From an uncultured Methanosarcinales archaeon (lineage in GTDB: Archaea > Nanobdellota > Nanobdellia > Woesearchaeales > CAZOXR01), in assembly GCA_964566535.1 (NCBI GenBank), contig CAZMIO010000001.1, positions 124,001 to 183,750 of the forward strand: a DNA stretch of 59,750 bases, given 5' to 3'. The notes beneath the pieces were generated by a model. The model worked only from the letters and a program-made list of their open reading frames with translations, had not been told where the DNA came from and ran no database searches. The position numbers were made by a program, and so were the translations under genes. The number at the start of each line of letters is the position of its first letter. Within the stretch, counting starts at the first letter, position 1. Shown piece by piece: positions 7,715-53,934 of the stretch.

Positions 7715-8398
7715 TCACATACTTCTAATCCGTTGGTATGAGACTAGATTCTTAAGATATAACCCATCCCTATCATTTTTTCCAACAGGTGTGCCATCGT
7801 TAGGTAATCTCTTACCAAATTCTAACCAATGATTAGGACCGTTAGGTGATTCCTTGACTCCTATTATAGGCCTGATTTCTCTCCAATCTAATGCTGCATC
7901 AGATCCAGTTGGATTGCCAAAACGATTTGATACAATCTCTGCTAGTTCAACTACTCTTCCATCAAATTCTTCACTAGTGTTAATCTTTGGTAAATGATCC
8001 AAATCTAGGTCTTCTTCGTGATCGGGAATATCTAATGGATCATACCCTACAATGCTACCCTCTTCCAAACATCCTGCATATGGCTCAAGCCTAACTTGAG
8101 TTCCACTGTTGGTACTAACACATCCTGCAAATAATAAGGAAACTGGTCCAACTTCCCTTCCTCTGCTAAACTGTACAGCTCTAAGTGGCTTTCCATAACC
8201 GATGGCATAACCTACTTCGTGGACTATTGAGTCACCATTTACCACATTGTAAGATAGCTCTATTGGAACTGGGTCTAATTTTACTCCCAAATCCTCTAAT
8301 CTCACTTCAACCCCACCAAGGTTCGGCTCAATGTCTAATAAACCCCTCATTTGACCAAGAGTTAAACGTCTAACACCAATCTCACTTAATTTAACCAT
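7715..8398 (-). CDS. Hypothetical protein, tandem paralogue A
   Basis: 227-aa ORF with its own TATA box; aligns by eye end to end with 8474..9148. Confidence 0.8.
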   Translation of the reverse strand: MVKLSEIGVRRLTLGQMRGLLDIEPNLGGVEVRLEDLGVKLDPVPIELSYNVVNGDSIVHEVGYAIGYGKPLRAVQFSRGREVGPVSLLFAGCVSTNSGTQVRLEPYAGCLEEGSIVGYDPLDIPDHEEDLDLDHLPKINTSEEFDGRVVELAEIVSNRFGNPTGSDAALDWREIRPIIGVKESPNGPNHWLEFGKRLPNDGTPVGKNDRDGLYLKNLVSYQRIRSM

Positions 8399-8419
8399 AA
8401 GTCAAAGAAATCTCAAATT

Positions 8420-8456
8420 ATTTAAAAATATTTTTGATTAAAACGTAACATTTATT
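8420..8456. repeat. 37-bp direct repeat, copy 1 (promoter block of paralogue A)
   Basis: ATTTAAAAATATTTTTGATTAAAACGTAACATTTATT, 35/37 identical to 9170..9206. Confidence 0.9.
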
Positions 8457-8473
8457 GATAACTAATCAGAAAT

Positions 8474-9148
8474 CTATTCACCCATACGCTCAATTTTTTG
8501 GTATGAAGTTAATGTATCAAGAGGTATACTACGTTCCAGTCCAAGGTCACTAAGCCAACCTCTACCATCACGGACGTAATTAAGACACGTCAGTCTAGGA
8601 CCATTTTCATGAAATTCTTCCACTCCTACGACATGCCTAATAGATCCCCACCTTTGCCTTGCAATAGATTCGGTTGGATTATATAACTCTGTTGTAACAA
8701 GTTCAGCAAGCTCAATAAATTCAGGATCTAGTTCACTTCCTCGATCCAATCGTGGTAAGTAACCTAAATCCAGTACCTCCTCATGTTCATCAATCTCCAA
8801 TCTTCTATGTCCAACAACAATGCTTTCTTCAACTGTACCTCTTCGTTCAAAAGGCCTTACTTGAACTCCAGTTTCACCATTAACATATTCTGCAAATAGT
8901 AAGGAGTCTTCTTCTCTACCAGATCCTGCTGCTTGTAATCCATAACCAACAGCGTACCCTCCTTTATGGAAAACTACAGATGAATCCCCATATGCCTTAT
9001 AAGAAAGTACTATCGGAACAGGAGCTAATTGTACTCCCAAATCTGCCAATCTTCTTTCAACTACATCTGGAGGTAATCTTCCATTCAGTAAAACCTTCAT
9101 TTGTGCTGGAGTTAAACGTTCAACACCCATTTCTTCAAGTATTGCCAT
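8474..9148 (-). CDS. Hypothetical protein, tandem paralogue B
   Basis: Shares GV.RLT..QM..LL, RL.DLGV.L.PVPI.LSY, GYA.GYG, HEE.LDL..LP, ELAE.V....NPT and SYQ.I with paralogue A. Confidence 0.8.
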   Translation of the reverse strand: MAILEEMGVERLTPAQMKVLLNGRLPPDVVERRLADLGVQLAPVPIVLSYKAYGDSSVVFHKGGYAVGYGLQAAGSGREEDSLLFAEYVNGETGVQVRPFERRGTVEESIVVGHRRLEIDEHEEVLDLGYLPRLDRGSELDPEFIELAELVTTELYNPTESIARQRWGSIRHVVGVEEFHENGPRLTCLNYVRDGRGWLSDLGLERSIPLDTLTSYQKIERMGE

Positions 9149-9169
9149 TAAGTAGGGTAACTTGGATCC

Positions 9170-9206
9170 ATTTAAAAATATTTTGGATTAAAACGCAACA
9201 TTTATT
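9170..9206. repeat. 37-bp direct repeat, copy 2 (bidirectional promoter region)
   Basis: ATTTAAAAATATTTTGGATTAAAACGCAACATTTATT, 750 bp from copy 1. Confidence 0.9.
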
Positions 9207-10774: not shown

Positions 10775-11164
10775 TTAAAAAGGAGGCTCAGCTATAAAAT
10801 CAGACCTTTCTTCGGGTTCTAAAATATCATCCAATACTTTTCCAATCAAATCCCTATCATCAGGATGAAGTTCTTGTTTCATCAGGATTTGAACTTGACT
10901 TCCACCATCAACAATTAAATCGTGATATATCCTAATCCAAGGGAAAAGTGAATCTAAACCGGAATAACTAGATATGGCAGCCACCCAAAGATTTCCTTCA
11001 TCATCCCCTAGGTATGTTTGTGCAACTATAGGTATAACAACATGAGCATGACTATTACCTGTAGAACCTAACTTTAATGGTGGTTCAAAATGAGCTGTAT
11101 ATATCTCTATTTTCCCATCTGGACTTGGTCTTTTTCCAATTGATAAAAGATACATGTCTTCCAT
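10775..11164 (-). CDS. Hypothetical protein
   Basis: 129-aa ORF filling the gap downstream of the thermosome gene; no recognised motif. Confidence 0.6.
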   Translation of the reverse strand: MEDMYLLSIGKRPSPDGKIEIYTAHFEPPLKLGSTGNSHAHVVIPIVAQTYLGDDEGNLWVAAISSYSGLDSLFPWIRIYHDLIVDGGSQVQILMKQELHPDDRDLIGKVLDDILEPEERSDFIAEPPF

Positions 11165-12916: not shown

Positions 12917-13519
12917 TTAGTGTCCAACTACCCTTAAAGGTACTCTGTCGGCTAGTTTTTCTAATCTTATTGGTGCTCCACGATACATTGCTTCAGATAC
13001 TTCTTCTACAACTTCGCCAGGTAAAGTGACTACACTGGGGTCTGTTTTCATCCTAAGTTCGAATAGTGATTTTGTTAAACCTTCGAAATCTGTTGCCAAC
13101 CTGGAGCATAAACCACTACCGGATACTCTAAGATTTGCGCGTGCAGACACAGCATACTGATATGCCGTTCTTCCAGATTCAATATAATGTCTTATTCCTA
13201 AGCTTGCTCTTCTTGCTTTTGCTGCATAACCTGGAAAAAAGCCAGCCAACCATAAGTAAGTATCACCGACTTGTCTAAAACTGCCATATCTCTCTGATAC
13301 TCTATCACTTTTCCATATCTGATCAAATCTTTCTGAATCAGATAATCCATCTGATAAGAATTTTAATCTACGCCTTTCGGTGTGTTCAACCATAATTTGG
13401 GCAACATGTCCCCTAACCTCTCCATCATCAATACCTTCAAGATTTAACCAGAAATATCGTTGAAGATCCCTATTACTTGTATTTGAAATTATTTCCCCAC
13501 CAGGATCTATAACGCCCAT
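12917..13519 (-). CDS. Hypothetical protein resembling an uncharacterised bacterial family (GD..L..AG.FP...HY...G..AY)
   Basis: RQVGDTYLWLAGFFPG...HYIESGRTAY...RLATDF; family recognised from memory only. Confidence 0.65.
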   Translation of the reverse strand: MGVIDPGGEIISNTSNRDLQRYFWLNLEGIDDGEVRGHVAQIMVEHTERRRLKFLSDGLSDSERFDQIWKSDRVSERYGSFRQVGDTYLWLAGFFPGYAAKARRASLGIRHYIESGRTAYQYAVSARANLRVSGSGLCSRLATDFEGLTKSLFELRMKTDPSVVTLPGEVVEEVSEAMYRGAPIRLEKLADRVPLRVVGH

Positions 13520-14980: not shown

Positions 14981-16282
14981 ATGCAGAACTTTATCGGTGG
15001 GATACACCCTAATTATTCTAAGTTGACTGAAAAAGAGGAAATTAAGGTAATGAATACTCCTAAAAAGGTAGTTATTCCTCTGTCAATGCATATTGGGGCT
15101 CCTTGTAAAGCTATTGTTGATGTTGGGGATAGAGTTAAGGTTGGGCAGAAGATTGGGGAAGCTGAGGGTTTTGTTTCTGCGCCAATACATTCAAGTATTT
15201 CTGGTACGGTTAGGTTGATTAAGGATATGCCTCATCCGCTTGGGACTACTGTAAGTTCTGTTGTTATTGAGTCTGATGATGCAAATGAATGGGTTGAGTC
15301 GGTTAAGGCCAGGAATAATGTTGATCATTTTTCTAAGGACGAGTTGAATAAGATTGTTCAAGAATCTGGAATTGTTGGATTGGGTGGAGCTGCTTTTCCT
15401 ACTCATGTTAAGCTGAGTGTTAAGGATAAGAAAATAGATACTGTTATTTTGAATGGAGCTGAGTGTGAGCCTTATCTTACTGCTGATCATAGTTTAATGG
15501 CTAAGGAGTATGAGAAGATTATCAAGGGTTTGAAGTTGATAATGAAGATTGTTGGTGCTTCTAAGGGAATAATTGGGGTAGAGGACAATAAATCTGATGT
15601 TATTCAAACTATGGCAGATAGGGCTAAGGTAATTCAAGGAGATATTTCTGTTGTTTCACTAAAAACTCTGTATCCTCAAGGTGCTGAGAAGATGTTGATC
15701 TATTCTTTGTTGGGTCGGAAGGTTCCTCCTCGAGGATTGCCGTTGGATGTTAATGTTGTTGTTAATAATGTTGGAACTGCAAAAGCTGTTTATGATGCTG
15801 TTTATGAAGGGAAGCCTTTGATTGAGAGGGTTGTTACTGTTACTGGTGTTGTTAGGGAGCCTAAGAATTTACTGGTTAAGATTGGAACTTTATTTGATGA
15901 TGTTATTAAGGAATGTGGTGGAGCTAGGGAGGGTGTTAAGAAGATTATATCTGGCGGACCGATGATGGGAATTTCGCAGAAGACTGCTTTAGTTCCTGTT
16001 GTTAAAGGGACTTCTGGGATTTTGCTTTTGGATAAGATAACTGTTGATGAAAAGTTAACTTGTATAAGATGCTCAAGGTGTGTTGATGTTTGTCCTATGT
16101 TTTTATTGCCGACTACAATTGCTCAGCATGCTGATAAGGAGTTGTATGATTTGGCTGAGTCTTATAATGCTGTAGATTGTTTTGAATGTGGTTGTTGTGC
16201 TTATGTTTGTCCTAGCAAGATTCCACTGGTTGAGATGATTAAGAAGGGGAAGATGGAGATTATGAAGAGGGCGAAGAAGTAA
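14981..16282 (+). CDS. rnfC: Rnf complex subunit C
   Basis: GGIHP, GIVGLGGAAFPTHVK, NGAECEPYLTAD, GGPMMG and two CxxCxxCxxxCP clusters. Confidence 0.97.
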   Translation: MQNFIGGIHPNYSKLTEKEEIKVMNTPKKVVIPLSMHIGAPCKAIVDVGDRVKVGQKIGEAEGFVSAPIHSSISGTVRLIKDMPHPLGTTVSSVVIESDDANEWVESVKARNNVDHFSKDELNKIVQESGIVGLGGAAFPTHVKLSVKDKKIDTVILNGAECEPYLTADHSLMAKEYEKIIKGLKLIMKIVGASKGIIGVEDNKSDVIQTMADRAKVIQGDISVVSLKTLYPQGAEKMLIYSLLGRKVPPRGLPLDVNVVVNNVGTAKAVYDAVYEGKPLIERVVTVTGVVREPKNLLVKIGTLFDDVIKECGGAREGVKKIISGGPMMGISQKTALVPVVKGTSGILLLDKITVDEKLTCIRCSRCVDVCPMFLLPTTIAQHADKELYDLAESYNAVDCFECGCCAYVCPSKIPLVEMIKKGKMEIMKRAKK

Positions 16283-16283
16283 G

Positions 16284-17201
16284 ATGGAAGAAAAGCACTT
16301 GATTGTTGATAACTCGCCGCACATTAAGGATAAAGATAGTGTGATGAGTATAATGTGGTGGGTTGTTATTGCATTATTACCTGCTGCTGGTGCTGGGGTT
16401 TATTACTTTGGTATTAGTGCTTTGTGGATTATACTAGTTAGTGTTCTTAGTGCTGTTATTACTGAGACTGTGATTCAGAAGTTTATGGGTAGAAATAATA
16501 CTGTTAAAGATGGTTCTGCTGTTATTACTGGGTTGCTTTTAGCTTTAGTGTTGCCGCCAACTGTTCCTTTGTGGCTTGCTGCTGTGGGATCTATAATTGC
16601 TATTGCGATTGCTAAGTTTGCTTTTGGCGGTTTAGGATTTAATATTTTTAATCCTGCTTTGATTGGAAGGGCTTTTTTAGTCGGTTCTTGGCCAATACTA
16701 ATGACAACTTGGTTAAGTCCAGATGGACTTACATCTGCAACTCCACTTGGAGCGTTGAAGGTTGGTGGAGAATTAATTGCAACAAATATGCAGATGTTTC
16801 TAGGGAATATTGGCGGGACAATAGGGGAGACTTCTGTTGTTGCTATTCTTGTCGGTGCTTTGATCTTGTTTTTGAAGAAGATAATTAATTGGAGAATTCC
16901 TGCAACTTATATTGGAACGGTGTTTGTATTTGCGTGGATATTTGGTCAGGATGCAATATTTCATATTTTAGGTGGAGGATTAATGCTTGGTGCGTTTTTT
17001 ATGGCCACTGATTATGTTACTTCGCCAATCACTAGGAATGGGAAGTTTGTATTTGGAGTTGGTTGTGGGTTGTTAACTATAATCATTAGAGTGTTTGGAG
17101 GAATAAACGAGGGAGTTATGTATTCAATATTGTTGATGAATGCTTTTACCCCTATAATTGATAGATATACTCAGCCTAAAGTTTTTGGAGCTAAAAAATG
17201 A
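16284..17201 (+). CDS. rnfD: Rnf complex subunit D
   Basis: SPHI, FGGLGFNIFNPAL, FMN site DGLTSATPL, GTIGETS, FFMATDYVTSP. Confidence 0.97.
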   Translation: MEEKHLIVDNSPHIKDKDSVMSIMWWVVIALLPAAGAGVYYFGISALWIILVSVLSAVITETVIQKFMGRNNTVKDGSAVITGLLLALVLPPTVPLWLAAVGSIIAIAIAKFAFGGLGFNIFNPALIGRAFLVGSWPILMTTWLSPDGLTSATPLGALKVGGELIATNMQMFLGNIGGTIGETSVVAILVGALILFLKKIINWRIPATYIGTVFVFAWIFGQDAIFHILGGGLMLGAFFMATDYVTSPITRNGKFVFGVGCGLLTIIIRVFGGINEGVMYSILLMNAFTPIIDRYTQPKVFGAKK

Positions 17202-17764
17202 GTGAGACGATACAATTAGTTACAGTGCTTGTTGTCATTAGTATAATTTCAGGTGTAGCTTTGTCTCTTACTTTTGATGCTACTGATCCTATTATTCAGC
17301 AGAATAAAGTTGATGATTTGATTAAGTCGTTATCTGATGTTTTAGCAGCGGATAGTTTTGAAGAGGTTGACATTTCAACTGGCAGTATATTGAAAGTGTA
17401 CAAGGGTTTTGATAAAGAAGGGAAGTTAGTTGGATTGGTGGTGTTGTCTGAACAAGCTGGATTCCAGAGTTATATTAAGATCTTGACTGGGATTGATATT
17501 AAATCAAGAAAGATAACAAAAGTTAAGGTATTAGAGCACTTGGAAACTCCAGGACTCGGTGCTAGGATTGATGAGGATGAGTTTTTATCTCAATTCCAGG
17601 ATAAATGGCTTAAGGAAGAAGTTGATGGTGTAACATCTGCAACAGTAGCAACTGTTGATGCTATTACTGGAGCGACAATATCCTCATCTACAGTAATTGG
17701 GACTGTTGGTGAGAGTCTAGAAGGTGTCTTAAGATTAATTAAAGAAGAGAATCTACTAAAATGA
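17198..17764 (+). CDS. rnfG: Rnf complex subunit G
   Basis: N-terminal TM helix, HLETPGLG, VDAITGATISS flavinylation motif. Confidence 0.95.
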   Translation: MSETIQLVTVLVVISIISGVALSLTFDATDPIIQQNKVDDLIKSLSDVLAADSFEEVDISTGSILKVYKGFDKEGKLVGLVVLSEQAGFQSYIKILTGIDIKSRKITKVKVLEHLETPGLGARIDEDEFLSQFQDKWLKEEVDGVTSATVATVDAITGATISSSTVIGTVGESLEGVLRLIKEENLLK

Positions 17765-18396
17765 GTTTTGCGCAACTACTAAAAGGAATATGGAAACAGA
17801 ATCCGATATTTAGGTTAGTTTTAGGTATGTGTCCTACTCTTGCTGTTACGACTGCTGCTGTAAATGGCCTTGCGATGGGGCTTGCTACACTCTTTGTGTT
17901 GTTAAGTTCTGCTTTGATTGTTTCCTTGATTAGGAAAGTAATTCCGACTAAGGTAAGGATACCAAGTTTTATTGTTATAATTGCTACTTTTGTTACGATT
18001 GCAGATTATATACTTGCTGCAACTGTTCCCCCTATTCATAAGGTTCTAGGGATATATGTTCCTTTGATTGTTGTGAACTGTATTATACTTGGTAGAATGG
18101 AGGCTTTTGCTTCTAAGAATTCAATTGGAACTTCTCTAATGGATGCTTTAGGGATGGGTCTTGGTTTTACTCTTGGTTTGGTGATATTGGGTTCGGTTAG
18201 GGAATTACTTGGGTTTGGTACTTTGTTTGGTGTTGGTTTGTTGGGTTCGTGGTATCCTCAGATGTTGATTATGAAACTGCCAACTGGTGCTTTTGTTACA
18301 CTTGGATTATTAATTGGGTTGATGAATTATATGTCGAAGAAGAAGACTTTGAAGACAACTTGCCATGATGCCGGTGGAGCTGATAAGAATGGTTAA
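17761..18396 (+). CDS. rnfE: Rnf complex subunit E
   Basis: LGMCPTLAVT, RIP, PLIVVNCIILGR, RELLG. Confidence 0.97.
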   Translation: MSFAQLLKGIWKQNPIFRLVLGMCPTLAVTTAAVNGLAMGLATLFVLLSSALIVSLIRKVIPTKVRIPSFIVIIATFVTIADYILAATVPPIHKVLGIYVPLIVVNCIILGRMEAFASKNSIGTSLMDALGMGLGFTLGLVILGSVRELLGFGTLFGVGLLGSWYPQMLIMKLPTGAFVTLGLLIGLMNYMSKKKTLKTTCHDAGGADKNG

Positions 18397-18964
18397 TTTG
18401 TTTTCGATATTCTTTGCAGCGGCCGTTGTTAATAATTTTGTATTTTATAGATTCTTAGGTATATGTCCATTTTTAGGTGTTTCACGTAAGACGAGGTCTG
18501 CAGTTGGCATGGGACTAGCAGTAACGTTTGTTATGGTTGTTGCTGGTAGTATTACTTGGATGATACAGCACTGGTTACTTGATGCTTTTGGTCTGCCGTT
18601 TTTACAGTATGTTTCGTTTATTTTAGTGATTGCTTCACTTGTGCAGCTGATAGAGATGTATATGAAGAAACATCAGGAAGCTTTGTATAAGGCTTTTGGG
18701 ATTTATCTGCCGTTGATTACTACGAATTGTGCTATTTTGGGTCTTGCTTTACTTAATGTTTTGAATAATTATAACTTTATAGAAAGTTTAGTGTTTTCAA
18801 TTGGTGCTGGTGCTGGTTTTACGCTTGCTTTGGTGATTATGTCTGGTATTCGTGAAAGGTTGGAGTTAGCTGATATTCCTGATGCTTTGCAAGGGATACC
18901 AATTGCTTTGATAATTGCTGGTTTGCTTGCGCTTGCTTTTAGTGGGTTTAGTGGGATGATATAA
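18389..18964 (+). CDS. rnfA: Rnf complex subunit A
   Basis: FLGICPFLGVS, LPLITTNCAILG, GIRERL; start moved to the ATG at 18389. Confidence 0.97.
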   Translation: MVNLFSIFFAAAVVNNFVFYRFLGICPFLGVSRKTRSAVGMGLAVTFVMVVAGSITWMIQHWLLDAFGLPFLQYVSFILVIASLVQLIEMYMKKHQEALYKAFGIYLPLITTNCAILGLALLNVLNNYNFIESLVFSIGAGAGFTLALVIMSGIRERLELADIPDALQGIPIALIIAGLLALAFSGFSGMI

Positions 18965-19036
18965 GTTCGTGGATTAATCTGAATAACTGCTTCTGAAAGA
19001 TAATATTTATATATCTTAGTACATTGCCTATTAGTT

Positions 19037-19726
19037 ATGTCGTACATGCATAAAGAACAGGTTGGAAAACTCGTTGAATCGGGCATTGATTCTGAAGATA
19101 TAATTGGTTGGCATGGTACATCTTTTGGTGCCATTCAAAAAATGGCTCAGATTGAAAGTCTTCTGCCAGGTACAAGATATGGACCTCAGCTGTCTTTTGT
19201 TCCTGTTCAAGGTATTGGAGATCGGGCAGCAATAGAGGCTGTTGGGGATTTCGCTTTTATGCATGCAAACGCTCATGCTTTATTAGGTGATATTAATGGA
19301 AGGGATGAACACTATGCTGCTGCTGTTGACTATTTTGAAGGTAAGATGAATCCGAGTAAATTAGCAGATGAACAAGCAAGAGCCCTATACGAGGCCGGCA
19401 GAGATCACCTTTGCGAACAGTTGGATTATACCGAAGATGAACTTAATGAGGCCTATAGTGAATTGGTTAATGAAGATGTATTTGGACAAGCACAAGAGGA
19501 TATCTCAAGAGTGGTATTTCAGAGTGTTGCAGTTGCTTTTTCCACAAGAGTAGCTGAGGATTTGGGGGTTCAAGTAAGAGATGGTTCTACACCCCAGGAT
19601 GGATCATACATCGTTGTCCCTGAAGAAGGTCTACCTTTAGAGTACGTTACTGGAATTGAAGCCTATGATAGGATAGTAATGAAATTTCTTGTTAGCGAAT
19701 TTCAAGGAGATCTTCCTTTTCCATAA
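19037..19726 (+). CDS. Hypothetical protein with possible ADP-ribosyltransferase-like fold
   Basis: IGWHGTS..AI (ART strand-1-like), LSFVP, C-terminal GLPLEYVTGIE; own TATA box at 19006..19013. Confidence 0.55.
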   Translation: MSYMHKEQVGKLVESGIDSEDIIGWHGTSFGAIQKMAQIESLLPGTRYGPQLSFVPVQGIGDRAAIEAVGDFAFMHANAHALLGDINGRDEHYAAAVDYFEGKMNPSKLADEQARALYEAGRDHLCEQLDYTEDELNEAYSELVNEDVFGQAQEDISRVVFQSVAVAFSTRVAEDLGVQVRDGSTPQDGSYIVVPEEGLPLEYVTGIEAYDRIVMKFLVSEFQGDLPFP

Positions 19727-19765
19727 TCATTAAATATATAAATCAGTATTCAATCTAATTCTAAT

Positions 19766-20056
19766 ATGGGAAGTATGCTTAGTTCGATATTAGTAATGGC
19801 CGGTCTTGGTTTAATATTTGCACTTATACTTAGCTGGGCTTCTAAGAAGTTTAAGGTTGAGGAAAAGGTTAAGGTTGATGTTAGTAAGATGAAAGATATT
19901 GTTATGGTCTTGCCTAAGACTAATTGTGGGGGCTGTGGGTATCCTGGTTGTGGTGCATTTGCTAAGGCTGTTTTAGATGGAGATGCCCCTCATGATGGTT
20001 GTATTGTAGGTAAGGAAGAAGTTGCTAAGAAGATTGAAGATATAATGAAAAAATAA
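19766..20056 (+). CDS. rnfB: Short RnfB-like subunit (membrane anchor plus one FeS domain)
   Basis: TM helix, ASKKFKVE, LPKTNCGGCGYPGC..FA.AV..G.....C; ends before any ferredoxin domain. Confidence 0.85.
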   Translation: MGSMLSSILVMAGLGLIFALILSWASKKFKVEEKVKVDVSKMKDIVMVLPKTNCGGCGYPGCGAFAKAVLDGDAPHDGCIVGKEEVAKKIEDIMKK

Positions 20057-34249: not shown

Positions 34250-34313
34250 TTTCTTTTTTTGTTAATATAATAACAGTAAGCTTATAAACAGATATTTATG
34301 ACTTAATTCTACT

Positions 34314-35636: not shown

Positions 35637-35638
35637 GA

Positions 35639-37269: not shown

Positions 37270-37323
37270 TATCTTTAATCTTAATTGGTTTGTTTCTTTG
37301 GAATTAAAATAAAGTAAACTGGG

Positions 37324-40050: not shown

Positions 40051-40057
40051 GGTGAAT

Positions 40058-41125: not shown

Positions 41126-41187
41126 AATGTTTGTCACTCATTAAATTTAAATAACATTTTTATAGGAATGTATATTAATTTGAGTTT

Positions 41188-42081: not shown

Positions 42082-42152
42082 TTTTATATATCTTTTTATA
42101 TCTATATATTATCCCGCAAACTTTAAATACCCTCCCCGTTTCTTTTAGTGCT

Positions 42153-45062
42153 ATGATTGATAAATATGTGCCTACTGAGACTGAGAAAGAGATTTTGAAG
42201 TTTTGGGAAAAGAATGAGATTTATAAAAAGGCTAAGGAGAAGAATGAAGGGAAGAAGAGTTTCTATTTCTTAGATGGACCTCCGTATACTTCTGGTAAGA
42301 TTCATTTAGGTATTGCTTGGAATAAGTCGCTTAAAGATTCTGTTCTTAGGTATAAACGGATGGCAGGTTTTGATGTGTGGGACAGGGCTGGTTATGATAT
42401 GCACGGCCTGCCTACGGCTCACAAGGTTATGGATAAATTGGAGATGAGGCATAAAGAAGATATTCCTAAGTATGGCGTTGATAAGTTCATTAAAGAGTGT
42501 AAGAAATTGTCTCTAGGGAACTTAGAGATGATGAATAAGGATTTTGACAGACTAGGAGTATGGATGGATTTTAAGAATCCATACAAAAGTGTTGATAATA
42601 GTTTTATGGAAGGTGAGTGGTGGCTGATAAAGAAGGCTTTTGAGAATGAGCGGTTGTATGAAGGGGAGAAGACGATGCACTGGTGCTCAGGTTGTGCTAC
42701 TTCCCTTGCAAAGCATGAGTTAGAGTATAAGAATGTTAAGGATAATTCTATTTTTGTCAAGTTTAAGGTTAAAGGTAAGAAGGATGAGTATTTGATAATT
42801 TGGACAACAACTCCGTGGACTTTGTCTTTTAATTTAGCTGTGATGGTTCATCCAGAACTTGATTATGTTAGAGTTAAAGTTGGTAAGGAAATTTGGGTTC
42901 TTGCTAAGGGACTTTCCAATGCTTTTTTATCTGGTGTTGTGGATACTAAGTTTGAAATAATTGAAGAGTTTAAAGGGGAGGAGCTTAAAGGTGTTAAGTA
43001 CGTTCATCCTTGGTTGAAAGATATTAAGCCATTTTCTGAGATTGAGTCAAAGAAATTACATTCAGTTGTTTTATGTGCTGAATATGTTGATTTGAGTGCA
43101 GGTTCTGGGTTAGTTCACACTGCTCCTGGATGTGGGCCTGAGGATTATGAAGTTGGACATAGAGAAGGATTGCCTCCATTTAATAATCTGAAGGAGGATG
43201 GAACGTTTCCTGATGATATGGGGCAGTTTTCTGGGCTCCGAGCTAAGAAAGATGATGAGAAGTTTATTGAAGCGCTTGAAGATAGTTTAATTGCTACAAC
43301 TCCTGTTGAGCATGAATATGCACACTGCTGGAGATGTCGTAAGCCCGTAATATTTAGGACGACAAAGCAGTGGTTCTTCAAAGTTGAGGATATGAAGGAA
43401 GATATGCGGAAGTTGAATAAGAAGATAGAATGGGTGCCTGATTGGGCAGGTAATAATTGGTTTGATTCATGGCTGAATAATTTGCGTGATAATGGAATTA
43501 CAAGGCAGAGATATTGGGGAACTCCACTTCCAATATGGAGATGTGAATGTGGAGAGTTTGATGTTATTGGTTCTGCTAAGGAGCTTAAGAAACTGGCTGG
43601 AGAGATTCCTAAAGATCTGCACAGGCCTTGGATTGATGAGGTTAAGTATAAATGTTCATGTGGTAAAGAGAAAGTAAGGATACCGGACATATTAGATGTG
43701 TGGATTGATTCTGGGGTAGCATCATGGACGTGTTTAGATTATCCGCAGAAAGAAGAGATGTTTAAGAAATTATGGCCAGCTGACTTTATACTTGAAGGTA
43801 AGGATCAGATTAGAGGGTGGTTTAATTTGCTTTTTGTTGCTTCTATGGTTGGATTAGAGAAGCCTAGCTATAAGTCTGTTTACATGCATGGTTTTATTCA
43901 AGATTCATCAGGGAGAAAGATGTCTAAATCGTTAGGTAATATTATTTCACCTTACGAAGTTATTGATGAGTATGGTTCAGACACTTTGAGATATTATATG
44001 ATCGGTGGGGCTAATGCTGGGCTTGACATTAACTATAATCCTGAGGATTTGAAGGTTAAGTATAAGTATTTGTTTGTGATTTGGAATTTGCACAAATATT
44101 TGATTGATTTATGTTCAACTTATAAGATTGATCCGGTTAGTTTGAAGGCTGGAAAGTTAGGTGTTGAGGAAGAGTTTATCTTTTCTAAGTTGAACAATAC
44201 GATTAAGAATGTTACTTCGTTGTTTGATAAGTATAAGATTGATGAAGTTCCTTTGTTAATTGAGGAATTGTTTTTGGCGTTAAGTAGAACTTATATTCAG
44301 TCAGTTAGGGATAAGTTGAGCGGTGATGGAAGAGATGTTGTTGTTTATACACTCTATAATGTTTTGATGGAGGGTTTGAAGTTGTTTGCTCCTATTGTTC
44401 CTTTTATTACTGAGACTGTTTATTTGAATTTGAAAGAGGAGTTTAAGCTTGAAGAAGAGAGCGTGCATATGTTTGATTGGCCTAGTGCGGATGAGAAGAA
44501 GATTGATGATAAATTGGAGGAGTATGTTGATGTTTCGCAGAGTATTATACAAGTTATGTTGTCTGGTAGAGAGAAGATGCAGCTTGGAGTAAGATGGCCG
44601 ATAAAGGAAGCCATTTTTGTTACTGAAGATAATAATATCGTTAGTGCTGTTAAGAGGCTTGAGGATAATATTAAGACTAAGACTAACGTTAAGAAGATAG
44701 TGGTGCAGAATAGTGCTGGTGGGAAAGGAGATTTTGAGATGGTGGAGTATAAGAGCTGTAAGATTTACATTAATAAGGAGAGGAATGATGAATTAGATGC
44801 AGAAGGTTATGCTAGGGAAGTTATGAGAAGGGTTCAAGTTCTTCGTAAGAAAGCTGGACTGCAGAAGAAGGATGAGATTAAGTTGGCTATAAAAGTTGAT
44901 GATAAGCTTTCAGGTATGTTGTCTGGTTGGTCTGATGCTATAAAGGATAAGGTTGGTGCTAAGTCTATTGAAGTTGGTAGTGAGGTTAAAGGTGAGTATA
45001 AGGAGAGTTCTAAAGAGAAAGTTAAGGGTAAGGAGTTTGAGTTGTTTTTTGAAGTTGTTTAA
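42153..45062 (+). CDS. ileS: Isoleucine--tRNA ligase (archaeal/eukaryote type)
   Basis: DGPPYTSG.IHLG, WTTTPWTL, GLVHTAPG, RQRYWG, DQIRGWF, KMSKS. Confidence 0.98.
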   Translation: MIDKYVPTETEKEILKFWEKNEIYKKAKEKNEGKKSFYFLDGPPYTSGKIHLGIAWNKSLKDSVLRYKRMAGFDVWDRAGYDMHGLPTAHKVMDKLEMRHKEDIPKYGVDKFIKECKKLSLGNLEMMNKDFDRLGVWMDFKNPYKSVDNSFMEGEWWLIKKAFENERLYEGEKTMHWCSGCATSLAKHELEYKNVKDNSIFVKFKVKGKKDEYLIIWTTTPWTLSFNLAVMVHPELDYVRVKVGKEIWVLAKGLSNAFLSGVVDTKFEIIEEFKGEELKGVKYVHPWLKDIKPFSEIESKKLHSVVLCAEYVDLSAGSGLVHTAPGCGPEDYEVGHREGLPPFNNLKEDGTFPDDMGQFSGLRAKKDDEKFIEALEDSLIATTPVEHEYAHCWRCRKPVIFRTTKQWFFKVEDMKEDMRKLNKKIEWVPDWAGNNWFDSWLNNLRDNGITRQRYWGTPLPIWRCECGEFDVIGSAKELKKLAGEIPKDLHRPWIDEVKYKCSCGKEKVRIPDILDVWIDSGVASWTCLDYPQKEEMFKKLWPADFILEGKDQIRGWFNLLFVASMVGLEKPSYKSVYMHGFIQDSSGRKMSKSLGNIISPYEVIDEYGSDTLRYYMIGGANAGLDINYNPEDLKVKYKYLFVIWNLHKYLIDLCSTYKIDPVSLKAGKLGVEEEFIFSKLNNTIKNVTSLFDKYKIDEVPLLIEELFLALSRTYIQSVRDKLSGDGRDVVVYTLYNVLMEGLKLFAPIVPFITETVYLNLKEEFKLEEESVHMFDWPSADEKKIDDKLEEYVDVSQSIIQVMLSGREKMQLGVRWPIKEAIFVTEDNNIVSAVKRLEDNIKTKTNVKKIVVQNSAGGKGDFEMVEYKSCKIYINKERNDELDAEGYAREVMRRVQVLRKKAGLQKKDEIKLAIKVDDKLSGMLSGWSDAIKDKVGAKSIEVGSEVKGEYKESSKEKVKGKEFELFFEVV

Positions 45063-47922: not shown

Positions 47923-48744
47923 ATGGTATTTGAAGCCCTTATTAATCCAATGAAGGCAGAAAGAAGGCCTTGGGAGCTATTTTTTATTGGGATTTTTTAT
48001 TCTTCGCTGGCGATAGTATTAAGTTTATGGATATTTAATGATCATGCTAGTTTGGTGATGGTTTTTATAACTGTTTTAGCATGTGTACATATTGTTTATG
48101 GAGTTATTCAATTAGAAGAGGAGAAAGGTAAGACTATAATGTCTGAGAGTGCTTTGTTTAAAGAGCATGGGAAGGCTTTGTTATTGTTCACATTTCTTTT
48201 TTTGGGTTTTGTTGTTTCTTTTTCGTTATGGTATGTATTTTTGCCTAGTGAGGCGTTGTCAAATGTGTTTGGAGTTCAGCAGCAAACTATAACTCAGATT
48301 AATACACAGATTACTGGAGGTTTTACTTTTAGTTTGACTACTTTTTCAAAGATATTTTTGAATAATATCAAAGTGATGATCTTTTGTTTGTTGTTTGCTT
48401 TCTTTTTTGGTACTGGTGCTATATTTATTCTGTCTTGGAATGCTTCTGTTATTGGAACAGCAATTGGTTCTTTTGTTAAAGGTAGTATGGAGTCAGGTGG
48501 TTTTGTTTCGGCCTTTTCACTTGGTGTGATGAGGTATATGACTCATGGAATATTTGAGATTGGTGCTTACTTTATGGTTGGGCTGGCTGGAGGGATTATT
48601 TCTATAGCTATTGTTAAGCATGAGTATGGCTCTGAAGGGTTTAGGCATACATTATTGGATTCTTTAGATTTAGTAATTGGGAGTGTTGTTGTGTTGTTTG
48701 TTGCAGGTTTGATAGAAGTGTTTGTTACTCCGGTTTTGTTTTAA
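47923..48744 (+). CDS. SpoIIM/DUF95 family membrane protein
   Basis: IFLNN, WNASVIG, HGIFEI.AY...GG, AGLIEVFVTP. Confidence 0.88.
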   Translation: MVFEALINPMKAERRPWELFFIGIFYSSLAIVLSLWIFNDHASLVMVFITVLACVHIVYGVIQLEEEKGKTIMSESALFKEHGKALLLFTFLFLGFVVSFSLWYVFLPSEALSNVFGVQQQTITQINTQITGGFTFSLTTFSKIFLNNIKVMIFCLLFAFFFGTGAIFILSWNASVIGTAIGSFVKGSMESGGFVSAFSLGVMRYMTHGIFEIGAYFMVGLAGGIISIAIVKHEYGSEGFRHTLLDSLDLVIGSVVVLFVAGLIEVFVTPVLF

Positions 48745-48745
48745 A

Positions 48746-50542
48746 ATGTTTCAGCCAAAACAAGTTAAAGAAAGAGTTGGACAGATTAGAGGATTAGTTA
48801 GTGAGGAGAAGCAGGATTTTGAACAGTTTTCTAAATATCAGAGAAAGAAGATTACTTTATTGAAGAGATATAAAAGAAGATTTGATAATCAGGGATTTCT
48901 TAGTGCTTTTCAGGAGATTGTTAATGCTCAACTTCGGATAATTTCGGCTATGAGAAGGGATCTTGCTAATGTTGGTAAGTTAATTTCTGTTTTATCTTCT
49001 ACTGAGGAAGAGGTTGAAGGAGTATTATTGGGATTTTTTAGAGAGAAGGGCTGGGAAACAAGGGATGCAGAAGAACTTCTTCATGAATTGAAATATGAGC
49101 ATGGGTTTGAGAAAGAGATTGGTAAAGTTAGGGAAGCTTCAGCTGAAGTGGTTGGTGAGATTGAACAGGGTCTTTCAGAGCAGAAGGCTCAACTTGAAGG
49201 TATAAAACCTAAGGGATTTAGAAATGTTGCGGCAGAATTGTTAAAAGCTAGTTCTGAAGAGAGGGAGAAGACAAAAGCTTTACGGAAGTTAGTGAAAGAA
49301 GGTGTAAGTGAAATGAAGAAATATTTTTCCTTACAATCTTTAAGTTATGTTCATGAGACAAAATTGGTTCCTGAGATTCAGAGAGTATTGGGGACTGGGC
49401 TAACTCCTGAGAATCTGGTTTTTGTTCATATGACTGATTATTTTCCTCTTAAGGGAGTTATAAGGACAAGAATTAGTTCTGATTATGCACCAAGGAATTC
49501 GCTTCACTTTACAACTAATGCGCCTGTTGAAGGTGTTGGAGGTATAGTGAATGCTTCTTGGAAAGGGATGAAGTTTTGTGTTCTTATACCTGGTTCAAGG
49601 TTTCCATTTAAGAGGATTGTAAATTTTGCTAGGTATGATACTTATATATTTGGGAATATTAGATTGCCTTCAGGTACAATAATAATAACACATCAAATAG
49701 ATGTTCTTCGTGAAGCGAAAAGTAAAGGTTTTGCTTTTGATGATTTTATTGAGTATTATAAGGGGAAGGGAGTAAGTATTCATATTATTGAAAGGAAGGA
49801 AAATACATATGATGCAGCAATTGAGATGATTCATAGAGTCGGGAGAGAGGTTCGAGATGTTAGTGATTTTGGAGATCCTCATGATAGGGCTCTTGCTAGT
49901 AGATTAGGTGCCTCTTCGGTAAGGCATTCGGAATTACCGCATGGTAGAATGGATGATAAGATTGGAAAATTGATTGATATAGCGTTGCCCTATTTAAGGA
50001 ATCCGAACTATTATAAAAATAAGTTTTTGCTCTCTGAAAAGAAGCAGTTCTGGAAAAGTATAGAGATTCTAGGGGTTGAGTTAGGATTTAGTGATGTAGA
50101 AAGTGTTGTATTCTTGCTTGGTGATGATGATATTAAGGATAAACCTAAATTACCTGCTATGGCAGTTGCATTGTTAGTGGAGTATTTTGAAAGATTATTA
50201 CGAGTTTTAGAATATCAATATAATCTTCTTAAAGAATATGATGGTAATGAAGAGAAGATGCATTCTGATGAAGGAGATTTAGCTCAATTTTTTAAGTGTT
50301 TTTGTGCTGATCCAACGTGGTATAAGCATGGGATGGGGAAGAGTATTTGTAGAGAATGGAAAGTACTACCTTTACCAAAGTATATTAGAGATATGTATCC
50401 TGGACAATCCAAGTCAATAGAAGCGAATATTAAGAAGATTGATAAGTTGATTAAATGGTTTTTAGCTTTGTATGAACAGTTTGAAGGAAGTGGAGAACTT
50501 GATACTGCAGAGATTGCGGAAAGGCTTCGAAATGGAGAATAA
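48746..50542 (+). CDS. Coiled-coil N-terminus plus central globular domain, possibly ART-like
   Basis: About 200 helical residues, then FVHMTDYFP...RNSLHFTTN...W...CVLIP...DTY. Confidence 0.55.
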   Translation: MFQPKQVKERVGQIRGLVSEEKQDFEQFSKYQRKKITLLKRYKRRFDNQGFLSAFQEIVNAQLRIISAMRRDLANVGKLISVLSSTEEEVEGVLLGFFREKGWETRDAEELLHELKYEHGFEKEIGKVREASAEVVGEIEQGLSEQKAQLEGIKPKGFRNVAAELLKASSEEREKTKALRKLVKEGVSEMKKYFSLQSLSYVHETKLVPEIQRVLGTGLTPENLVFVHMTDYFPLKGVIRTRISSDYAPRNSLHFTTNAPVEGVGGIVNASWKGMKFCVLIPGSRFPFKRIVNFARYDTYIFGNIRLPSGTIIITHQIDVLREAKSKGFAFDDFIEYYKGKGVSIHIIERKENTYDAAIEMIHRVGREVRDVSDFGDPHDRALASRLGASSVRHSELPHGRMDDKIGKLIDIALPYLRNPNYYKNKFLLSEKKQFWKSIEILGVELGFSDVESVVFLLGDDDIKDKPKLPAMAVALLVEYFERLLRVLEYQYNLLKEYDGNEEKMHSDEGDLAQFFKCFCADPTWYKHGMGKSICREWKVLPLPKYIRDMYPGQSKSIEANIKKIDKLIKWFLALYEQFEGSGELDTAEIAERLRNGE

Positions 50543-51248: not shown

Positions 51249-51321
51249 CAACAATAATGGCGGCAACATCGGCATGCAGGGTGCTGTACACTGCATGCGT
51301 CTTTTTGTGCCGTTGTTGTTG
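51249..51321 (+). ncRNA. Candidate structured non-coding RNA (long two-stem hairpin)
   Basis: GC-rich island. Inner stem GCATGCAG/CTGCATGC; outer 13-bp stem AATAATGGCGGCA/TGCCGTTGTTGTT whose G-U pairs favour the + strand. Confidence 0.45.
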
Positions 51322-51406
51322 AAAAATGAATGTTGATGGTTTTTCCAAAAACAAAAACTATATAAAAGACCTCTTAGTTGTAAAATTAAAATATTAGGTG
51401 ATTTTA

Positions 51407-51916
51407 ATGGATGTTAATACTGCACAAAAAGTAAATGATTTGGCAAAAGAGTTGGTACAGAAAGGATTAGCTGCTTCTCTTGATGATGCGTCTAGTATGG
51501 CGCAAAGAATGATGAAAGATGAATTGAAGAAGGACGAATTACCTCAGCAGTGGTCTGAGGTTTCGAAAGCTGGTAATTCTACGGAGCAGCTTGAGATAAT
51601 GTTAGAGCGGAACAACAGAAAGATTGGTTATGAGATTACTGCTGTTAGAGATGAGGTTAAGTCTCTTAAGAATTTGATTGAGATGTTTAGAAACGAGATT
51701 GGTTATATTAAGAAAGACTTGAAAGGTTTGAAGTTGGGTGGCGGAGAGGTTGTGGAAGAGGTTAAGGTTGAGAAAGAAGTTGAAGTTGAGAAGAGGGAAG
51801 CTAAAGTTGAAGAGCAGAAGGTGTTGAGTGAAGAGAAGAGGGCGCCTCCTAAAAATCAAGATTTTACTCCCGAAGATGTTTCTGTTGAGAAGATGTTTTA
51901 TTTTGGTAAGAAATAA
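51407..51916 (+). CDS. Hypothetical coiled-coil protein
   Basis: AGGTGA RBS; central heptad repeats; motif-like C-terminus EDVSVEKMFYFGKK. Confidence 0.75.
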   Translation: MDVNTAQKVNDLAKELVQKGLAASLDDASSMAQRMMKDELKKDELPQQWSEVSKAGNSTEQLEIMLERNNRKIGYEITAVRDEVKSLKNLIEMFRNEIGYIKKDLKGLKLGGGEVVEEVKVEKEVEVEKREAKVEEQKVLSEEKRAPPKNQDFTPEDVSVEKMFYFGKK

Positions 51917-51977
51917 TTGAATTGTTCTGGGGCTTAAAATAATAAACTATTTATACAAGCATTCTAATGAATTATGT

Positions 51978-52946
51978 ATGACTATTGATAAATCAGATTA
52001 TCTAAGTGTTCTTGAGAATTTTCCTAGGCAGTGCAGAGAGGCTCTTGAACTGACTAAAGGGATGAAGATTTCTGGTAAGATTGGAAGTATTGTAATATGT
52101 GGGATGGGAGGTTCTGCTATTGGTGGAGATATGTTGAAGAGTTATATGAGGGATAATGAGATTCCTGTTGTTGTAAACAGAGATTATAATTTACCTAAGT
52201 TTGTTAATGAAAGTACACTTGTTTTTGTTATTTCTTATTCTGGGAATACTGAGGAGACTCTAAGTTGTTACAAAGAAGCTGTTAAGAAGAAAGCAACTAT
52301 TTGGGGAATTACGTCTGGTGGTAAGTTAGAGGGACTTTGTAAGAATATTATTAAGATTCCTTCTGGATTGCAGCCTCGTGCGGCTACTGGGTATTTATTC
52401 TTCCCAATGTTGGGATTGTTGTACAACACAGGAATAATTGATGTTAAGAATGCGGAATTGAATGAATTTTTGGATATGATTAAGGATGTTGAAAAGTTTA
52501 AATCAGCTGGTGAGGAGTTAGCTAAGAAAATGAAGGAGAAATTGCCGATTATTTATTCCTCTAATCTGTTTGAGCCTGTTGCTTACAGAATTAAGACTCA
52601 GTTTAATGAGAACAGCAAGCATCCTTCCTATCATCACACGTTTTCTGAGATGAATCATAACGAGATTTTAAGCGTTGAGAGTATGGAGCGGAGTAAATTT
52701 ATTGTGTTTATGATAAGAGATGAAGGTGATCATCCTAGGATTAAGAAGAGGATGGATATCTGTAAAGATATTTTTGAGCGAAATGTTGATGTTGAAGAGA
52801 TTAAGACTCAGGGGAAGTATTTACTGACTAGAATGTTTTCTGCTATCTATTTAGGTGATTTTATTACATATTATTTGGCCATAAACAAGAGGGTTGACCC
52901 TGCTCCTGTTGTAGTTATTGAGTGGTTGAAGAAGAAGTTGGGTTGA
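51978..52946 (+). CDS. Bifunctional phosphoglucose/phosphomannose isomerase (SIS)
   Basis: GMGGSAIGG, SYSGNTEET, QPRAA, QFNENSK, EMNHNE. Confidence 0.95.
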   Translation: MTIDKSDYLSVLENFPRQCREALELTKGMKISGKIGSIVICGMGGSAIGGDMLKSYMRDNEIPVVVNRDYNLPKFVNESTLVFVISYSGNTEETLSCYKEAVKKKATIWGITSGGKLEGLCKNIIKIPSGLQPRAATGYLFFPMLGLLYNTGIIDVKNAELNEFLDMIKDVEKFKSAGEELAKKMKEKLPIIYSSNLFEPVAYRIKTQFNENSKHPSYHHTFSEMNHNEILSVESMERSKFIVFMIRDEGDHPRIKKRMDICKDIFERNVDVEEIKTQGKYLLTRMFSAIYLGDFITYYLAINKRVDPAPVVVIEWLKKKLG

Positions 52947-53013
52947 AAAAAGGAAATATTTATAAATGAATTTTGCTTCCCTATAGTAATAACAAATAGG
53001 TAAAGTTAATAAA

Positions 53014-53934
53014 ATGCCAGAATTAAGTGATTTGAACGCAAGAGGATGGGAGTACATCCAAGAGTACAAACCTTTTGAAGATTATAGTCCTTCACCCAAT
53101 ATAGGTGGGCCTGCACCTTCACATGATAATGTTGATGTATCAAATAGTGCTTTTTCTGCGTTTGAAGAAGTAGTAGCTGTTTCTACAACAACTGTGAATT
53201 GGAGCCATCAGTTTAGGTCAAAGATGTTGTATGTTGTAGGCTATGATTCGATAGATCCAGTTACGAGTAGACCAAATATTTTAGATGAGGCTAAGGCCGA
53301 TAGACTAATTGATTTTATGCGTAAAGATCTTTTTGAGTATGTTCTTGATAAGTATTTTAATAGCAGTATAGAGGGAGAAGATAGGGATAAATTCCAATCA
53401 TTTGTTGAAAGGATTATTATGGTTGGGAAGGAACAGATTTTACAATATTTAGAAGTAGATTCTAGAGTAGACCATGCAAGGATTGCTAATGTTGCAAAAT
53501 ATGTTGCAGGCGAAGTTAGAAGAGTAATCAATAGGAGTATGGCATATTATGAGATCACTGATGAAAATGATGAAAATGCTGGACGAGAATTAATGGTATT
53601 CTCGCATATGTTTTCTGGTACTAATCTTAGTGCTCAACAATATACTAGTATCGCAAATATTAGAGGAGTTGCTAATATTGTTGGTGCATTAGGTCAGTTA
53701 GAGAGTGGTGTTGATGCTAAAGTTGATGAGTATATAGGGAGATCAACTGAAACTGACTTGGAAGCACTTCAAGGATTTATGCGTTCAAGAGTTGAAATAC
53801 CTACATTTAGGGATGTTGAAGATGGGCCTCTTGAAAATAGAGTAGCTATTCCTCATGAAGATGATGATCGGTTCGTAAGGTCTGAGCCTGGTGGAGTTTT
53901 GATTCCGAGAGACCATTCCATTATAGAACCTTGA
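53014..53934 (+). CDS. Hypothetical protein (acidic, Lys-poor)
   Basis: 306-aa ORF; no recognised motif. Confidence 0.7.
   Translation: MPELSDLNARGWEYIQEYKPFEDYSPSPNIGGPAPSHDNVDVSNSAFSAFEEVVAVSTTTVNWSHQFRSKMLYVVGYDSIDPVTSRPNILDEAKADRLIDFMRKDLFEYVLDKYFNSSIEGEDRDKFQSFVERIIMVGKEQILQYLEVDSRVDHARIANVAKYVAGEVRRVINRSMAYYEITDENDENAGRELMVFSHMFSGTNLSAQQYTSIANIRGVANIVGALGQLESGVDAKVDEYIGRSTETDLEALQGFMRSRVEIPTFRDVEDGPLENRVAIPHEDDDRFVRSEPGGVLIPRDHSIIEP

Follow-up and report, generated by a model that had tools for sequence, protein, structure and literature searches.

Lysine-poor proteins dispersed through a Woesearchaeales genome and a candidate bacterial host

Why would an archaeal genome under AT pressure keep, dispersed among its housekeeping genes, proteins that hold hardly any lysine (Lys, K)? 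The question is raised by a stretch of 59,750 nucleotides (nt), here called the window, which spans positions 124001-183750 of contig C1 in genome G000 and in which 11 of the 64 complete genes encode Lys-poor proteins. An earlier reading of the letters alone (the sequence-only reading) had counted Lys by hand in six of these proteins and in SlyD, and had proposed a second protein class built to work in another compartment such as a host cell. Its counts are exact in all seven cases (4/224, 6/200, 6/229, 8/369, 3/189 and 9/306; SlyD 36/241). We followed the class through the whole genome, which measures 1.45 Mb, is 91% complete and is placed in the Woesearchaeales (DPANN) by its archaeal core genes; other G-numbers denote further genomes compared. 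About one gene in eight of G000 codes for a protein using arginine (Arg, R) instead of Lys. We give a probability of roughly 0.5 to the reading that the proteins of this class would act beyond the cytoplasm of the archaeon itself, for the most part inside or on the surface of a bacterial host, for which Poribacteria are the best candidate.

Two modes of lysine use in one genome

We called 1413 open reading frames (ORFs) in G000 with a simple self-trained script, whose start sites are approximate, and determined the composition of the 1146 soluble ORFs of at least 100 amino acids (aa). Bimodality at matched third-position GC content (GC3) had been set beforehand as the test for a separate class. 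The ratio K/(K+R) is indeed bimodal, with Bayesian information criterion values of -704, -1078 and -1059 for one, two and three components and modes at 0.76 and 0.39 in the two-component fit. Both modes are seen within the GC3 bins 0.20-0.23 and 0.23-0.26. The mixture model assigns 170 of the 1146 ORFs to the Lys-poor class, of which the window contains 11; for the comparison with 941 core genes we used a strict set of 137 genes.

The strict class contains 3.2% K, 7.0% R, 8.8% G, 5.8% I and 0.6% C with a median isoelectric point of 4.9, compared to 10.5% K, 3.6% R, 6.5% G, 8.6% I, 1.2% C and 8.4 in the core. Net charge is -0.048 in the class and +0.001 in the core, and median protein lengths are 256 and 274 aa. 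Lys-rich Pfam orphans (8-12% K) also occur in the window at 23309-24058, 24101-25228, 48722-50542 and 54068-54799; orphan status is therefore not the same as being Lys-poor. A weak DUF4347 match was seen for 24101-25228.

GC3 is lower in the class than in the core (0.226 vs 0.300), so GC content does not explain the Lys-poor proteins, which exist despite AT pressure as the sequence-only reading had held. Both Lys codons are reduced, AAA being relatively higher; the AAG share of Lys codons is 0.29 compared to 0.37 in the core, and for Lys, Glu and Gln the codons ending in G take a smaller, not a larger, share. Random codons built from fourfold sites of the class would give a neutral expectation of 8.4% K and 2.8% R. 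GC content or an A-to-G mutational bias as the cause is contradicted by GC3, codon shares and this expectation alike. Avoidance of A runs at the DNA level was also rejected: off-frame AAA occurs at 0.97-1.05 of expectation, and off-frame AAA/AAG is not depleted. Codon selection is weaker in the class (TTC 0.20 vs 0.39, AAC 0.24 vs 0.40).

Class genes stand mostly alone, 112 of 135 class runs consisting of one gene, and coupling to the next gene is rare (7% vs 36% in the core). A TATA-like box at -22 to -45 precedes 77 of 106 class genes and 317 of 478 core genes having their own upstream gap, with a peak at -30 common to both; for the window genes we located it by eye at -28 to -33 in 9 of 11. 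Single placement and own TATA boxes, both claimed earlier, thus hold for most class genes. No promoter motif of the class's own was found (best hexamer p 2e-4, uncorrected).

Direct repeats of at least 13 nt flank 10 of 165 class genes, two of them tandem paralogues, compared to 4 of 950 core genes. They measure 13-30 nt and often copy promoter-region DNA (e.g. C3:41688-42185, C1:58305-58742, C7:49570-50514), a possible trace of single-gene insertion with promoter gain. Apart from this enrichment the earlier statement that mobile-element hallmarks are missing was borne out. Inverted repeats of at least 12 nt are not enriched (3/167 class vs 4/198 comparison genes), rve was not found in the test for mobile-element cargo, only 5 of 118 orphans match PHROG at E 0.01 and PADLOC matched 0 of 12. 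Integron cassettes, prophages and mobile-element cargo are thus not supported as the source.

A chimeric assembly was rejected: class and core genes alternate along the main contigs, with junctions spanned by contigs from other runs. The stretch 27001-36900 is present in 20 of 22 listed runs (15 studies; 17 seawater/marine, 2 hydrothermal vent, 1 unlabelled), three of which may be the assembly's own source, and no RNA run is among the listed holders. Contigs from marine runs of different studies differ by 0-1 over window 27001-43000 and the Pup-ligase locus of contig C2, as in a near-clonal population; the run contigs are so close to G000 that no usable variants were found for a population comparison of nonsynonymous and synonymous differences (pN/pS).

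Class content, lysine loss and the Poribacteria link

Recognisable families are few, and around 75% of the class are orphans. The Pfam scan covered 144 members outside the window; the 11 window members were treated apart, and the remaining 15 of the 170 had masked letters or loci that were not retrieved. By hand count, 22 of the 144 have a match at E 1e-10, a threshold reached by 111 of 150 core genes drawn at random, and 36 have one at E 1e-3. Bacteria-only content among the 144 consists of four sigma-70 factors, a YkuD L,D-peptidase, a Pup-ligase family gene split in two, a TolB-like propeller and two secreted proteins with dockerin and FlgD-Ig domains. Other members are a trypsin, a kinase, HD, NUDIX, nucleotidyltransferase, MutS, methyltransferases and radical SAM proteins. 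Metabolism is represented by phosphofructokinase, class I aldolase, LsrF, a GmhA-like protein, homoserine dehydrogenase and a LeuA-like protein, the latter two having Lys-rich paralogues in G000. The term arsenal of effector folds used in the sequence-only reading therefore overstates the case: most members that can be recognised are regulators, envelope proteins or enzymes of metabolism, and some of the class are ordinary archaeal surface proteins.

The sigma-70 factor g1025 (G000:C8:8310-9155) has regions 2, 3 and 4 above the Pfam cut-offs; region 2.2 and WWIR are retained and the -35 helix is altered. Searches of the order covered 201 or 301 genomes, as given in each case. Sigma-70 region 2 was found in 118 of 301; among the controls, the 10 bacteria alone have it. 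The sigma-70 and TatC tallies and the sigma Lys median given below include the unpublished genomes G112, G121, G132, G182 and G244, on which alone no conclusion rests.

An N-terminal hydrophobic segment is found at a similar rate in the class (31/170) and the core (146/960), and the 146 core proteins with such a segment are Lys-rich (median 8.3% K). The earlier claim that the soluble orphans show no signal peptide thus stands for 139 of the 170 members and fails for window gene 33305, which has an Ala-rich N-terminal segment. Signals in the class are either Leu/Ile-rich as in the core or Ala/Gly-rich; Ala and Gly make up at least 35% of 18 of 41 class segments compared to 22 of 177 core segments, a few of which are Rossmann strands. 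Two class signals of G000 are, by consensus, of the twin-arginine translocation (Tat) type. Neither TatC, TatA, Pup nor the alpha-CTD of bacterial RNA polymerase was found in G000 at its 91% completeness. Within the order TatC was found in 22 of 201 genomes; G206, which is 100% complete, holds a Tat-type Lys-poor gene, and TatC was not found there.

Some further envelope genes are recorded here as side observations. G000:C14:7292-8017 encodes a full bacterial-type prolipoprotein diacylglyceryl transferase (Lgt), matched among the controls only by the 10 bacteria. A Lys-poor protein on G000:C21 (L056:2228-3010) has an Ala/Gly-rich signal with weak Tse3 muramidase and SLT_2 matches (E 0.05 and 0.14) and is possibly a peptidoglycan lysozyme. 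Two paralogous Lys-poor proteins with Ala-rich signals (G000:C6:29454-30509 and C8:11081-12142) share a G-E-D-H ... R ... G-x-x-H pattern like that of the TIKI/ChaN superfamily, a likeness that has no Pfam support.

Whether Lys was lost or inherited was approached through homologues. Of the K residues conserved in 119 RpoD homologues g1025 keeps 1 of 14, compared to 14 of 21 R (p 0.0006) and 43 of 87 other polar residues (p 0.003). Against five Poribacteria homologues it keeps 1 of 13 conserved K, 8 being replaced by R, and retains 10 of 16 R, 8 of 16 E and 8 of 13 D. The tail of g0856 has 0.5% K compared to a median of 2.8% in 118 homologues, and g0107 has 1.0% compared to 3.3%. For 12917 the values are 3.2% and a median of 6.5% in 34 homologues, 24% of which are equally low; R is the commonest residue opposite a homologue's K. 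A quick tree places 12917 with a sister of 75% identity within a group of 14 rows (support 92) whose other members have 3.9-13.4% K. This tree and that of the Pup-ligase family have long branches and cover few bacterial phyla, so that the donor is not fixed by them. Close full-length homologues in high-GC donors, named earlier as a sign of simple recent transfer, were not found for the genes searched.

Duplicates within the genome and genes shared with bacteria gave a second view. At variable sites nine class paralogue pairs have 4.8% K and 7.0% R compared to 9.3% K and 3.7% R in 116 core pairs; pN is below pS in all nine, with pS near saturation. The three Lys that line up with the aldolase active-site Lys are retained. 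Where a core gene has a Poribacteria homologue G000 has more K in 49 of 49 cases (median 9.9 vs 3.8%). Taken together, the homologue, duplicate and core comparisons suggest that donors were often Lys-poor already and that further Lys was removed or kept out over a long residence.

Several observations connect the class to Poribacteria. The dockerin and Ig tail of g0073 matches 2852 proteins, and among the best 120 both taxon-named ones are from Poribacteria. A search with one of these two brought up 70 loci, of which 66 bear the title Poribacteria and 4 that of an uncultured bacterium. Among 201 genomes of the order, 2 have the tail in full and around 20 others a single domain only. The C-terminus of g0107 is a motif found in 9 of 752 Poribacteria ORFs. 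Each of five Poribacteria genomes searched holds four Pup-ligase family genes, and one locus in full reads arc-dop-pup-prcB-prcA-pafA, a complete Pup-proteasome operon. In a comparison of Poribacteria and actinobacterial sequences the Pup-ligase gene of G000 falls with the PafA of Poribacteria (42%; 195 bits, compared to 137 for Dop of actinobacteria). In composition the class lies at a distance of 3.6 from soluble Poribacteria proteins (n=547, a sample biased to loci around tail genes) and of 8.5 from its own core.

Relatives were sampled over 59-273 kb in 16 genomes, with G008 added later, and core and non-core genes were separated by homology to G000, not by composition. Non-core genes far under the core K/(K+R) make up 30-31% in G001, G108 and G295, 15-21% in G022, G095 and G206, 19% in G008 and 0-6% in the other ten sampled genomes. 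G295 retains the class at GC3 of about 0.1, its long ORFs having about 4% Lys and 8% Arg. Lys-poor genes of relatives include an M23 peptidase, an OmpA-family protein, a tail as in type IX secretion, patatin, GNAT, sigma-70 and a Pup ligase; the sigma-70 and Pup-ligase loci had been picked for those genes. Of 301 genomes of the order, 6 have the Pup-ligase family; besides G000 these are five with 1-5 matches each, some with long extensions.

A proposed host-side function weighed against its alternatives

We regard it as fairly probable that the host is a bacterium. That Poribacteria are among the hosts is put forward tentatively, and pupylation as the force that drives the Lys purge we hold to be rather doubtful. 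Genes would be acquired singly from bacteria or other Woesearchaeota and placed behind native TATA promoters, in some cases with intergenic DNA duplicated. Their products would move to the host on cell contact, where host export would then serve those pre-proteins that carry Poribacteria tails and Sec/Tat signals of bacterial style. Selection in the host compartment would keep the class net-negative like the proteome of a free-living bacterium; the net-negative surface of proteins is reported to be tuned to each cell's interior and to turn positive in endosymbionts, according to the part of PMC9171632 available. Non-catalytic Lys would be removed, most simply as the acceptor for host pupylation, a step drawn by analogy with the AB toxins in the accessible part of PMC6769291. 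In its fullest form this makes the woesearchaeote a Poribacteria epibiont handing over a Lys-purged proteome that escapes the host Pup-proteasome, a cross-domain take-over kit. We think that form unlikely; the kit would consist of sigma factors, of enzymes for metabolism and modification, and of pre-proteins meant for the host's Sec/Tat and C-terminal sorting.

Of the proposal of a second protein class for another compartment, the bacteria-only functions, the Lys to Arg loss and a candidate host with a Lys-tagging proteasome speak in its favour; the outcome at the protein ends does not. Terminal composition is that of the class, with a mild C-terminal rise of Arg as Lys rises in the core, and no shared terminal motif appeared, no de novo motif search having been made beyond this. 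This and the following points weigh against a host-side role. A VirB4/TraG-type ATPase was not found in G000 (91% complete; type III and type VI secretion systems, T3SS and T6SS, were not searched), which has two weak T2SSE-family ATPase matches. Roughly twelve members of the class are surface proteins of archaeal style, and secreted proteins meet cytoplasmic PafA only on crossing the host cytoplasm. Four of five Pup-ligase carriers among the 16 relatives have 0-6% Lys-poor non-core genes, and we rejected possession of a Pup ligase as a predictor of the purge: carriers are mostly at 0-6%, whereas G001, G108 and G295 reach about 30%. Among 30 sigma-type ORFs from other genomes median K is 8.3% and only 3 have at most 5%. 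Most sigma-70 factors are thus not Lys-poor, and host-only function and Lys loss are therefore separable. Of the 96 residues that vary between 12917 and its 75% sister, 10 are Lys, and the g0073 tail has K like its homologues (3.2 vs 2.4%). The PafA-like gene (C2:44228-45747) lies in two ORFs with the frame change identical in runs X4 and X6, a sign of decay. Donors, finally, appear to be several, not one: neither class I aldolase nor the 12917 family turned up in the five Poribacteria genomes, and g1025 stands equally near to RpoD of Bacillota (41-42%) and of Poribacteria (39-40%).

The best surviving alternative is old gene transfer with compositional inertia, in which genes from GC-richer bacteria accumulated, their silent sites have adopted the usage of the archaeon while their amino acids lag, and they work or decay in the archaeon. 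We consider it unlikely. The resemblance of the class to Poribacteria proteins in composition, the g0073 tail with K equal to its homologues, the several donors and the broken PafA would all follow from it, as would the high turnover seen for 19037 and 29281, each present in 1 of 201 genomes. It is opposed by conserved sites at which K lies under the level of the homologues, in genes that have turned over 55-65% of their amino acids, and by variable sites of in-genome duplicates that remain Lys-poor. Bacteria-shared core genes are Lys-rich, since 49 of 49 exceed the Poribacteria homologue; G295 retains its Lys-poor class at a GC3 of about 0.1, and sigma-70 and Tat signals come without partners found.

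An internal pressure that strips Lys from a regulon we judge improbable. Lys methylation or acetylation, turnover by a SAMP-proteasome, or shortage of tRNA-Lys or lysine in a free starving phase could exert it. It would suit a lineage-wide purge whose presence differs by archaeal lineage and which strikes cytoplasmic-type and secreted members alike, and the weaker codon selection (TTC, AAC) points to a separate low-expression regime. It gives no account of why bacteria-only functions gather in the class, no class promoter motif was found, and two LysA-type decarboxylase genes are present in G000; both Lys codons drop, with AAA relatively higher. ARAGORN called no tRNA-Lys at its default score, which is uninformative since many tRNAs are missing or intron-split.

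Least of all do we expect surface mimicry only, with the class decorating the archaeal surface or host envelope through docking tails and wall enzymes, Lys-poor as acidic seawater-exposed proteins: large native surface proteins are also Lys-poor and the dockerin/FlgD tails, YkuD, TolB-like protein and weak lysozyme-like match would fit, but 139 of 170 members have no N-terminal hydrophobic segment, the 146 core proteins with one are Lys-rich, and sigma factors, PafA and glycolytic enzymes are useless outside a cell.

Known systems share parts of the pattern. ORFans and ameliorating transferred genes (Daubin-Ochman, Lawrence-Ochman) are accessory genes that stand singly, are patchily distributed and low in GC3, and have silent sites like those of the host. 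The class resembles them in silent sites at or above the host's AT bias (GC3 0.226 vs 0.300); unlike them it is not short, and its amino acids go against AT pressure. Its K moreover does not lie between donor and host but under the homologues in g1025, g0856, g0107, 12917 and 28095, the g0073 tail being equal. Phage auxiliary genes for host take-over include sigma factors and metabolic enzymes. The class likewise has sigma factors, phosphofructokinase, aldolase and modifiers of the ADP-ribosyltransferase (ART) and GNAT type; unlike phage genes it is chromosomal, dispersed and behind archaeal promoters, with only 5 of 118 orphans matching PHROG. As in repertoires injected by T3SS, T4SS or T6SS there are members whose partners were not found in G000 (four sigma-70, YkuD, Pup ligase, Tat signals); in contrast to these, no shared terminal translocation signal was found.

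Lys-poor AB toxins and effectors have Arg for Lys, read as escape from ubiquitination in the parts of PMC6769291 and PMC4951486 available to us. The class shares the Lys to Arg change relative to homologues. It differs from AB toxins, which are single toxins with eukaryotic targets and experimental support, in comprising about 170 unrelated archaeal genes with a postulated Pup filter, recognised from genes alone. Sigma-70 was reported to be prevalent in Woesearchaeota, not mis-binned and of unclear function, with bacterial hosts as an open question (Castelle et al. 2021, PMC8204110). There the factors are part of the archaeon's hybrid inventory, and the accessible part of that study speaks neither of a class defined by composition nor of Lys loss or delivery to a host. 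Bacteria-directed enzymes occur in archaea, most notably in Nanoarchaeota, and these archaea are suspected of attacking or feeding on bacteria (PMC12352652, PMC9723730, as far as their accessible parts go). Those of the 'vampiristic' Woesearchaeota are, in the same parts, secreted wall enzymes such as peptidoglycan hydrolases and a pore-forming toxin; G000 adds cytoplasmic regulators and enzymes marked by composition. Its tlyC-like CNNM/CBS/CorC gene falls in the Lys-rich core.

The literature search, outside of which lay most subscription journals, yielded neither a report of a Lys-poor accessory class in DPANN nor one of a pairing between Woesearchaeota and Poribacteria, and the literature searched describes no selective cause for a lineage-specific Lys to Arg purge. 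New here are the homologue-based Lys loss, its tie to bacteria-only functions, the orphan Tat signals and a named candidate host. As a marker, Lys-poor composition could set apart, as facing the host, about 170 genes most of which have no annotation. Lineage-specific sorting tails point to one bacterial phylum, and Woesearchaeota hosts and sigma-70 use become testable. If the take-over kit were real it could be read from any DPANN genome by K/(K+R), with the tails naming the host; even on a weaker reading, a proteome-wide Lys to Arg purge against AT pressure in some lineages needs a selective cause.

Members in the window and neighbouring features

Window genes are named by their first position. 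The tandem paralogues 7715 (7715-8398, minus strand, 227 aa, 8 K, 16 R) and 8474 (8474-9148, minus, 224 aa, 4 K, 20 R) share 41% identity with pS 0.64 and pN 0.37. The promoter of 7715 (8420-8456, minus) is 95% identical to that of 8474 (9170-9206), so gene and promoter were duplicated together. A borderline member with a class posterior of 0.31 (10775-11164, minus, 129 aa, 5 K, 4 R) lies directly behind the thermosome gene.

The earlier label of orphan holds for 29281, 7715 and 8474, which have no family match (for 7715 none in Pfam, NCBIfam, PHROG or PADLOC); 12917 and 28095 have homologues and are not strict orphans. Gene 12917 (12917-13519, minus) encodes an all-helical protein of 200 aa from an uncharacterised family with bacterial look-alikes, present in 16 of 301 genomes of the order; a word-seeded search with it retrieved itself and the 75% sister only. 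Its model (pLDDT 84) found no match at E 0.001 in PDB or BFVD, the best Z being 6.1 to helical repeats, and thus shows neither a known nor a new fold.

The effector-like folds seen earlier in the window fared unevenly. The GNAT acetyltransferase 30365 (30365-30865, plus, 166 aa, 6 K, 16 R) is the sole window class member above a curated family cut-off (PF00583, 21.5 bits vs 20.7); the match covers residues 76-117 only, with phrog_1249 matched as well (E 0.0013). The candidate ART-fold protein 19037 (19037-19726, plus, 229 aa) is a lead from structure search. A feature search gave AcrIF11 and ART-PolyVal at 0.89; the nearest models were DarT, DUF952 and NarE, all with TM by query below 0.5. Most named structure matches were ART-fold families, with TM scores by query of 0.32-0.42 on a model of pLDDT 0.53.

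The kinase-like candidate 28095 (28095-29204, minus, 369 aa, 8 K) has one homologue, in G008 (41%; L307:1495-2640); in the first 340 aa 28095 has 7 K and the homologue 18 K, at a GC3 of 0.22 and 0.48, respectively. H-x-Q-x-H-x-x-N and D-W are invariant in the pair, which we liken to kinase catalytic and metal-binding motifs, with Gln where kinases have Asp. No kinase match was found among families or PDB, and its single-sequence AlphaFold model has a pLDDT of 30. The homologue ends in a SEC-C (SecA-type zinc) motif, which was not found in any G000 ORF. The TraB/TIKI likeness of 29281 (29281-29850, plus, 189 aa, 3 K, 15 R) likewise comes from motifs; no match was found at E 10 in Pfam or PDB.

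The remaining members are orphans. Gene 33305 (33305-34249, plus, 314 aa) has, besides its Ala-rich N-terminal hydrophobic segment, a C-terminal hydrophobic anchor. Gene 35639 (35639-36718, minus, 359 aa, 16 K, 31 R) has no family match; for 41188 (41188-42081, plus, 297 aa, 11 K, 19 R) a contig of run X16 bridges the junction to the upstream core gene, and 53014 (53014-53934, plus) has 306 aa with 9 K and 22 R.

A complete bacterial-type, Lys-rich rnfCDGEAB operon occupies 14981-20056, with an ApbE gene upstream on the opposite strand. It is split by 19037, which has its own TATA box and parts rnfA from rnfB; the two adjoin in the same-family genome G001. An exact 33-nt tandem duplication at 25821-25886 repeats 11 residues at the 3' end of ORF 25173, and two tandem HIT-like paralogues, recognised by motif and ending in acidic tails, lie at 55750-57161.

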